A DNA stretch of 10,732 bases, from assembly GCF_003334335.1 (NCBI RefSeq), contig NZ_QOWQ01000064.1; one strand, 5' to 3'. Numbering within the stretch: position 1 is the stretch's first letter; each line of letters opens with the position of its first letter. This DNA comes from Escherichia coli. GTDB lineage: Bacteria; Pseudomonadota; Gammaproteobacteria; Enterobacterales; Enterobacteriaceae. Shown here piece after piece: positions 6,563 to 6,715 of the stretch. The notes beneath the pieces were generated by a model, which ran no database searches, had not been told where the DNA came from, and saw only the letters and a list, made by a program, of their open reading frames with translations. Position numbers and translations under genes: made by a program.

Positions 6563-6715
6563 ATTAAAGAGCATTAGTTCAGATGTGAATTGACATTTTC
6601 ATGGCGCAGGGTAGAGCCAGCGTGGTTGTCCGCTTTGCGTCAAAACCAGATATTACCAGATTTAGACATATATTCCCGATAGCCCTGCTCTGATGCTACA
6701 CTCTGTGCTATTTTC

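Follow-up and report, generated by a model that had tools for sequence, protein, structure and literature searches.

The ACCAGAT direct repeat upstream of a prophage-borne queH gene in Escherichia coli: a probable chance product of a cargo junction

Just upstream of queH, in a lambdoid prophage of Escherichia coli, the heptamer ACCAGAT occurs twice in the same orientation, three nucleotides apart. This raises the question of whether the expression of queH is controlled through the repeat, as proposed in a first-pass annotation of this DNA, which saw in it a tandem half-site for an activator or a repressor, or whether the two copies came together in some other way. The host enzyme QueG needs cobalamin, and queH encodes a cobalamin-independent epoxyqueuosine reductase. 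About one in six complete E. coli genomes (953 of 5,426) has this gene on a prophage, as cargo, and its expression in lysogens therefore decides whether such prophages make queuosine formation B12-independent.

The queH cargo and its prophage hotspot

The window, by which we mean the whole stretch of DNA that was analysed (10,732 nucleotides), has 100% identity to the chromosome of E. coli JE86-ST05 (NZ_AP022815; locus position = window position + 501), and represents the early region of a lambdoid E. coli prophage of the Qin/Rac-like type. According to the annotation, its order is DicF, dicB, a cI-like/cro pair, ydaT, replication genes, DUF1627, DUF977, queH, hok/sok, DUF968, rusA and an antiterminator. 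The following features, in window coordinates, define the setting of the repeat:

1019-1070, minus strand: DicF (Rfam, 72.5 bits)
5381-6151: DUF1627 gene (annotation)
6167-6562, plus strand: DUF977 family gene in a ren-like position (PGAP annotation of NZ_AP022815)
6563-6654, plus strand: left arm, conserved and non-coding, common to prophages with and without queH (alignments)
6655-7404, plus strand: queH cargo (moron) of 750 bp, made up of an 82-nt leader, queH and 2 nt past the stop codon
6737-7402, plus strand: queH, epoxyqueuosine reductase (PGAP annotation, Pfam and a match to structure 7LC5)
7405-7795, plus strand: right arm of the hotspot, a hok/sok module (Rfam sok at 7470-7645, 120.5 bits; hokD annotated)

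The DUF977 gene is the last conserved one ahead of the variable hotspot. A weak winged-helix match covers residues 7-68 of its product, and a likewise weak winged-helix match was obtained for DUF1627. Adjoining DicF, there is a match to STnc100 on the minus strand (867-1007) that stays below threshold, its 34.5 bits falling short of the gathering score, which is 47.

The queH product matches the Pfam family QueH (PF02677, DUF208) with E = 1.1e-65, covering positions 1-174 of the 175-position model, and the QueH structure of T. maritima (7LC5) with E = 7.6e-22, in an alignment that brings the CCAPC and YCGC cysteine motifs together, while the NCBIfam models gave no match to it. The leader of queH is A/U-rich and has no Shine-Dalgarno sequence. 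Among the 5,426 complete genomes of E. coli, 1,576 contain the region, and most of the queH segment is present in 953 of these. As representatives of the queH classes we compared NS-NP030 (96%), WCHEC96200 (95%), A31 (93%), FDAARGOS_1250 (92%), phage HannyBb (91%), EcPF15 and GPEC1352 (both 88%) and the IMG/VR locus L023. The 80 IMG/VR loci retrieved with the QueH protein, all 100% identical at the protein level, added few upstream variants. Across the classes ATG 6737 is invariant, and the 88% class has ATT in place of the in-frame upstream ATG (6716), which makes 6737, and not 6716, the probable start codon. The closest QueH from outside E. coli has 79% protein identity and is found at positions 133939-134580 of CAKLQH020000001.1, a 328-kb record labelled 'Acinetobacter phage MD-2021a' (our locus L217), where soxR and ycaQ are neighbours. 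This record looks like a bacterial chromosome rather than a phage, and the AT-rich region upstream of its queH is unrelated to that of the window. A brief literature search on queH/DUF208 in E. coli prophages, DUF977 and ydaW returned nothing relevant.

The limits of the cargo were defined by alignment to queH-less prophages from E. coli genomes, five of them added to a first set, and to 120 IMG/VR loci retrieved through the arm motif. The left arm is homologous up to window position 6654, after which the sequences diverge, and this is so in more than 25 different cargo contexts. Each of them has an arm that ends in ...GTCCGCTTTGTGCCA-NNN-GCGGAC-RTT, and the cargo-specific sequence follows directly, which places the boundary at 6654|6655 of the window. 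On the right-hand side, about 17 other cargo types become homologous to the window again at 7403-7405. The annotated cargos found at this site, besides queH, include a Kiwa KwaB-like gene, an NgoMIV-type restriction-modification system, DUF4209 and FRG-domain genes, a BCCT transporter, a Lit-like exclusion protein and hypothetical genes, and many of the hotspot cargos are encoded on the opposite strand. The site next to DUF977 is thus, in these alignments, a sharply bounded cargo hotspot, of which a brief literature search found no description; as it also houses anti-phage genes, it should be useful for mining. The description of queH as a moron agrees with these comparisons, in which the same site is occupied in some related prophages and free of queH in others.

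Several other traces of rearrangement were observed around the cargo. Right past the queH stop codon lies the end of an ORF, ATGGATCACCTTTCTGATTGA (MDHLSD and a stop; window 7403-7425). In queH-less prophages the same frame runs leftwards as a conserved small hydrophobic ORF (ending in ...AIAAVMAIYCLAVVLMDRLSD and a stop), which the insertion of queH truncated. In strain JKHS016, an IS5-family element is present in the DUF977-queH spacer at CTAG, window 6559 (L004, ~930-2000), and in L034 (~1150-1390) a transposase gene ends just before window ~6621, in an IS insertion independent of that of JKHS016. It is by this insertion, and not by a separate cassette boundary, that the left context of L034 differs, and the IS5 insertion of JKHS016 is to be read in the same way. 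About 100 nt downstream of queH, the HannyBb/FDAARGOS_1250 and 88% classes have a perfect 12-bp inverted repeat (TGAGCAGGTCAT...ATGACCTGCTCA) with a T-containing tail (L001, ~4080-4200; L010, ~3220-3340), which is absent from the window. The terminator scan did not call it because the loop is too long.

Origin and conservation of the two copies

The two ACCAGAT copies are present as described earlier, with ATT between them and a period of 10:

6645-6651, plus strand: copy 1, inside the conserved arm; homologous to AGCGGAC, AGCAGAC or AGCAGAT in relatives
6655-6661, plus strand: copy 2, the first 7 nt of the queH-specific cargo; ACAAGAT in strain A31

The 22-mer quoted for the pair in the first-pass annotation, AAAACCAGATATTACCAGATTT, is correct as a string, and its coordinates need a shift of one base to the right, from 6641-6662 to 6642-6663. 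Since the arm ends at 6654 and the cargo starts at 6655, copy 1 is arm sequence and copy 2 consists of the first seven bases of the cargo, so that the pair straddles the junction.

Exact direct repeats of at least 7 nt are not rare in this DNA: the window has nine with a period of 7-12, against 3.3 expected for first-order random sequence, and three with a period of 10-11, against 1.2 expected on the same basis. Of the simulated 174-bp spacers, 5.2% contained one or more repeats of this kind. The pair is consistent with chance and does not go beyond it. Taken singly, the heptamer is found six times in the window, where 1.19 occurrences would be expected, and none of 200 shuffles reached six. 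Its positions are 2475, 3570, 6304 (minus strand), 6645, 6655 and 9610 (minus strand), and the four occurrences outside the repeat are single and lie in coding regions.

The comparison of the queH classes shows that the perfect pair is present only in the class with at least 99% identity to the window. The 96% and 95% classes have AGCAGAT-ATT-ACCAGAT, the 92% and 91% classes AGCAGAC-ATT-ACCAGAT, and A31 (93%) AGCAGAT-ATT-ACAAGAT, and in the 88% class and in L023 this position is taken by unrelated sequence without any homologue of the repeat. Single loci within the window's own class have ACCAGAG, or AAGACCAGAT, the latter with a change from A to G just upstream. No allele is commoner than the perfect repeat: of the ~953 complete E. 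coli genomes with queH, 703 show at least 99% identity to the window. In the six classes with a homologous region, the repeat span has 3 variable columns out of 17, all three of them heptamer positions; the left arm has 4 out of 24, and the segment right of the repeat 4 out of 26. The repeat thus varies at the rate of its flanks, and we see no sign of purifying selection on the pair in these alignments.

Promoter candidates and arm hairpins

Four promoter-like sites were identified, with scores from an approximate sigma-70 matrix:

6694-6702, plus strand: Pb, candidate extended -10 TGCTACACT, score 9.0
6706-6714, plus strand: Pc, second candidate extended -10 TGCTATTTT, score 6.0
6626-6654, plus strand: Pa, third candidate, TTGTCC (6626-6631), 17 nt and GATATT (6649-6654), score 9.5
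6728-6756, minus strand: antisense promoter-like site TTGAAA-17-TATTTT, score 12.9, fourth best in the window

The extended -10 proposed in the first-pass annotation, TGCTACACT, is found exactly at 6694-6702, and the remark that it has no obvious -35 also holds, the best candidate being TTCCCG, which is weak (3/6) and has an 18-nt spacer. In Pb a TGn precedes the hexamer TACACT (6697-6702), which matches at 4 of 6 positions and has the A at position 2 and the T at position 6. With the approximate matrix, Pb ranks about 24th of the 21,410 positions in the window. A consensus promoter scan called neither Pb nor Pa. The two heptamer copies would be at about -64 to -48 from the start predicted by the 6697-6702 hexamer.

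Pb belongs to a block, TCTGATGCTACAC, that is present in all queH contexts, with the exceptions of WCHEC, which has TGCCACACT and the hexamer CACACT, the 88% class, whose TACACA has no last T, a base that is usually critical, and L023, which has TCTAATGC. This block is the best-conserved part of the queH leader, with 2 of 15 columns variable in six classes; over all nine variants, 4 of its 15 columns are variable, versus 16 of 34 in the rest of the leader. In the 88% class, homology to the window starts 9 nt before the -10, and in L023 about 26 nt before it. The -10 block thus always travels with queH and the repeat does not. In total, the block accompanies queH in three independent left-hand contexts. 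The earlier suggestion that queH has its own promoter is moderately supported by this linkage, against which stand the ordinary score, the exceptions listed above and the rival candidates; we consider a promoter of the moron's own plausible on these grounds. Pc is a rival of this kind: it is missing only from the 88% class, where TGCAAGTTT takes its place, and is about as conserved as Pb.

The antisense site, which looks strong, points out of the start of queH, and neither the HannyBb nor the 88% class conserves its -10. The same two classes also do not conserve a near-repeat, CTCTGATGCTA / CTCTG-TGCTA, at 6688-6698 and 6701-6710, in which two tandem TGCTA motifs resemble an extended -10. A sigma-E or sigma-54 promoter, considered on account of the strings TCTGA and TGGCAC, was rejected by inspection only, since spacing and partner elements do not fit. 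In the Sakai strain (O157:H7, the dRNA-seq strain), prophage Sp14 has neither queH nor the arm motif. The terminator scan called no terminator-like site on the plus strand between 6000 and 7600, and hence none between DUF977 and queH.

The left arm, into which copy 1 falls, has features of its own:

6620-6637, plus strand: invariant block GCGTGGTTGTCCGCTTTG, once in the window, with one C/T position
6602-6642, plus strand: stem S1, TGGCGCA (6602-6608) with TGCGTCA (6636-6642)
6628-6651, plus strand: stem S2, GTCCGC (6628-6633) with GCGGAC in relatives

The GCGTGGTTGTCCGCTTTG block is identical in all homologues derived by BLAST, including those retrieved without the anchor, with flanks that are only 85-93% identical. 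Across 30 distinct arm sequences, 97% of the cells are paired in S1, which was recovered by RNAalifold, and 89% in S2 (6628-6633 with 6646-6651), values to be read with the caveats that the structures were derived from the same sequences used to score pairing and that the anchor used to retrieve most sequences is exact and leaves the 5' arm of S2 no room to vary. When the partners are slid by 1-3 columns, just 24-47% of the cells are paired. The changes in S1 are G-U wobbles and one A-U to G-C double change, and those in S2 include one C-G to U-A double change. The wobbles of S1 work only on the plus strand as RNA, and S1 is a possible hairpin of the early-right transcript. S1 and S2 are mutually exclusive as simple hairpins.

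The hairpin of the queH-less prophages, TGTCCGCTTT-GTGCCA-AAAGCGGACA, has a folding energy of -16.1 kcal/mol (z = -4.5), and none of 200 shuffles was as good. The HannyBb-type hairpin reaches -14.6 kcal/mol (z = -4.3) and is maintained by a compensatory change from C-G to T-A. The window has CCAGAT (6646-6651) as the 3' arm of S2, a string that lies within copy 1 and leaves two mismatches, and this version folds differently, with -6.8 kcal/mol (z = -1.2). The arm ends 3 nt past the foot of the hairpin, where no U-tract is found but RTT and cargo-specific sequence instead, and no terminator was called there, so that the hairpin is not a canonical terminator. Rfam searches of the window, of 6540-6800 and of a queH-less arm gave nothing relevant. 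The 92-nt arm, with its invariant block, its two covarying stems and its constant end point, may tentatively be seen as a functional boundary element of the lambdoid cargo hotspot, a possible reading that we put forward with some reserve. In such a role it could form an RNA 3'-end or processing structure that insulates the cargo against the early-right operon, serve as an operator for the neighbouring winged-helix proteins, or provide a handle or target for cargo exchange. If this were true, the lineage of the window would be a natural loss-of-hairpin variant.

Other candidates in the arm were discarded. A tRNA-like fragment, looked for because of the GGTAGAGC motif, was not found by ARAGORN. 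A small plus-strand ORF from ATG 6601 (MAQGRASVVVRF...), considered since the variation looked codon-like, was rejected because its start is ACG or CTG in some classes and in-frame stops are present in five (TAG in the L138 group; TGA in L005, L003, L007 and L008). A minus-strand ORF that shares its third positions has no conserved start. Elsewhere in the window, in the DUF968 gene, the half-sites of the arm hairpin recur with a different spacing in the palindrome GTCCGC-N9-GCGGAC (8747-8767), of which about 0.03 would be expected per window by a rough estimate, and which is also present in HannyBb and L034.

Reading of the repeat and comparison with known systems

In our view, the repeat is probably the result of a chance juxtaposition at the cargo junction and a point mutation, and not an evolved binding site, with queH likely having a weak promoter of its own. 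The insertion of the cargo would have set copy 1 of the arm beside copy 2 of the cargo, giving an imperfect ancestral pair, AGCAGAT-ATT-ACCAGAT. A later G-to-C change at 6646, in the lineage of the window, would then have perfected the pair, with the loss of a hairpin base pair; a repeat produced by juxtaposition and one point mutation would not be an evolved binding site. In the lysogen, queH would most likely be transcribed from its own weak promoter inside the cargo, without a -35 and with an extended -10, presumably either TGCTACACT at 6694-6702 or TGCTATTTT at 6706-6714, and the resulting mRNA would begin with a short leader, rich in A/U and devoid of a Shine-Dalgarno sequence. Upon induction, queH would probably also be read through from the early-right operon, because there is no terminator between DUF977 and queH. 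Given the abundance of the perfect-repeat lineage, a function recently gained there is conceivable, and the abundance may also reflect clonal spread, for example of ST131.

The notion that ACCAGAT-N3-ACCAGAT is an activator or repressor site, for instance for a response regulator or a winged-helix protein of the prophage, and makes queH expression conditional, draws on real features of the locus: two exact 7-nt copies lie one helical turn apart, upstream of a candidate promoter without a -35, a geometry that suits an upstream activator; the winged-helix-like DUF1627 and DUF977 are encoded immediately upstream, so that a local DNA-binding protein is conceivable; and the heptamer is over-represented in the window. 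We nevertheless consider it very unlikely, since outside the window's class the pair is either imperfect or missing, the copies have separate origins across a mosaic junction, they show no excess conservation and are compatible with chance, and nothing links DUF1627 or DUF977 to the heptamers. In addition, the same G-to-C change that perfects the repeat breaks a pair of the hairpin conserved in relatives, and the half-site interpretation of the first-pass annotation is for these reasons not supported. The region could instead be core promoter DNA, with Pa reading from the arm into any cargo and a start near 6661. The -10 of Pa overlaps copy 1 and the ATT spacer, its -35 is within the invariant 18-nt block, the cargo always starts 3 nt after the -10-like hexamer, the GATATT of the queH lineages is nearer to consensus than the GACATT of other prophages, and in the matrix Pa scores 9.5 versus 9.0 for Pb. 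Yet this -10 is poorly conserved, with GACGTT and GAAGTT among the relatives' versions as well as GACATA, GACATC and GTCATT. A promoter in this place would give antisense RNA at the many opposite-strand cargos, the consensus scan did not call it, and queH keeps its leader and -10 block when parted from the arm, as in the 88% class and L023. We therefore regard Pa as an unlikely explanation of the repeat region.

Control by a cis-acting RNA leader at 6640-6736, of the preQ1 riboswitch type or an attenuator, has some appeal, as queH is a gene of the queuosine pathway, in which preQ1 riboswitches are common, and the GCUACAC string is also present in the preQ1-I aptamer of B. subtilis. Still, no Rfam match was obtained at 6540-6800, even with E up to 10 and lax filters, the segment 6640-6740 folds no better than shuffled sequence (z = +0.78), and within the cassette it is the leader that varies most (16 of 34 columns), which makes this possibility hardly credible.

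Regulator sites of the OmpR/PhoB family and those of lambda CII resemble the pair in being short direct repeats about one helical turn apart at promoters with a weak -35. They differ in that the half-sites here are unconserved and were joined by cargo insertion. By inspection, the pair resembles no direct-repeat consensus that we know of for PhoB, OmpR, CpxR, PhoP or lambda CII (TTGC-N6-TTGC), and to our knowledge it is also unlike the inverted repeat reported for YdaT (TTGATT-N6-AATCAA). Extended -10 (TGn) sigma-70 promoters are like Pb in having a TG one base upstream of the hexamer and a poor -35, whereas the TACACT of Pb is only a 4/6 match and loses its last T in the 88% class.

The morons of lambdoid phages, reportedly described in 2000 by Juhala and by Hendrix with their respective co-workers, are a closer parallel. 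Like queH, they are single extra genes between conserved genes of some related prophages, with a promoter-like sequence of their own and a function that benefits the host and not the phage; the queH case is unlike them in that the scan of the window found no terminator after the gene and that expression is here predicted. As to the site itself, hotspots of variable and often anti-phage cargo are reported for P2 and P4 prophages (Rousset et al. 2022, PMC9122126), and they share with the DUF977 site conserved flanks around a highly variable content. The Kiwa-like, restriction-modification and Lit-like cargos make the DUF977 site similar to such anti-phage hotspots. It differs from the P2/P4 examples in being located in Qin/Rac-like lambdoid prophages, between DUF977 and hok/sok, and in holding here, as its cargo, a tRNA-modification enzyme.
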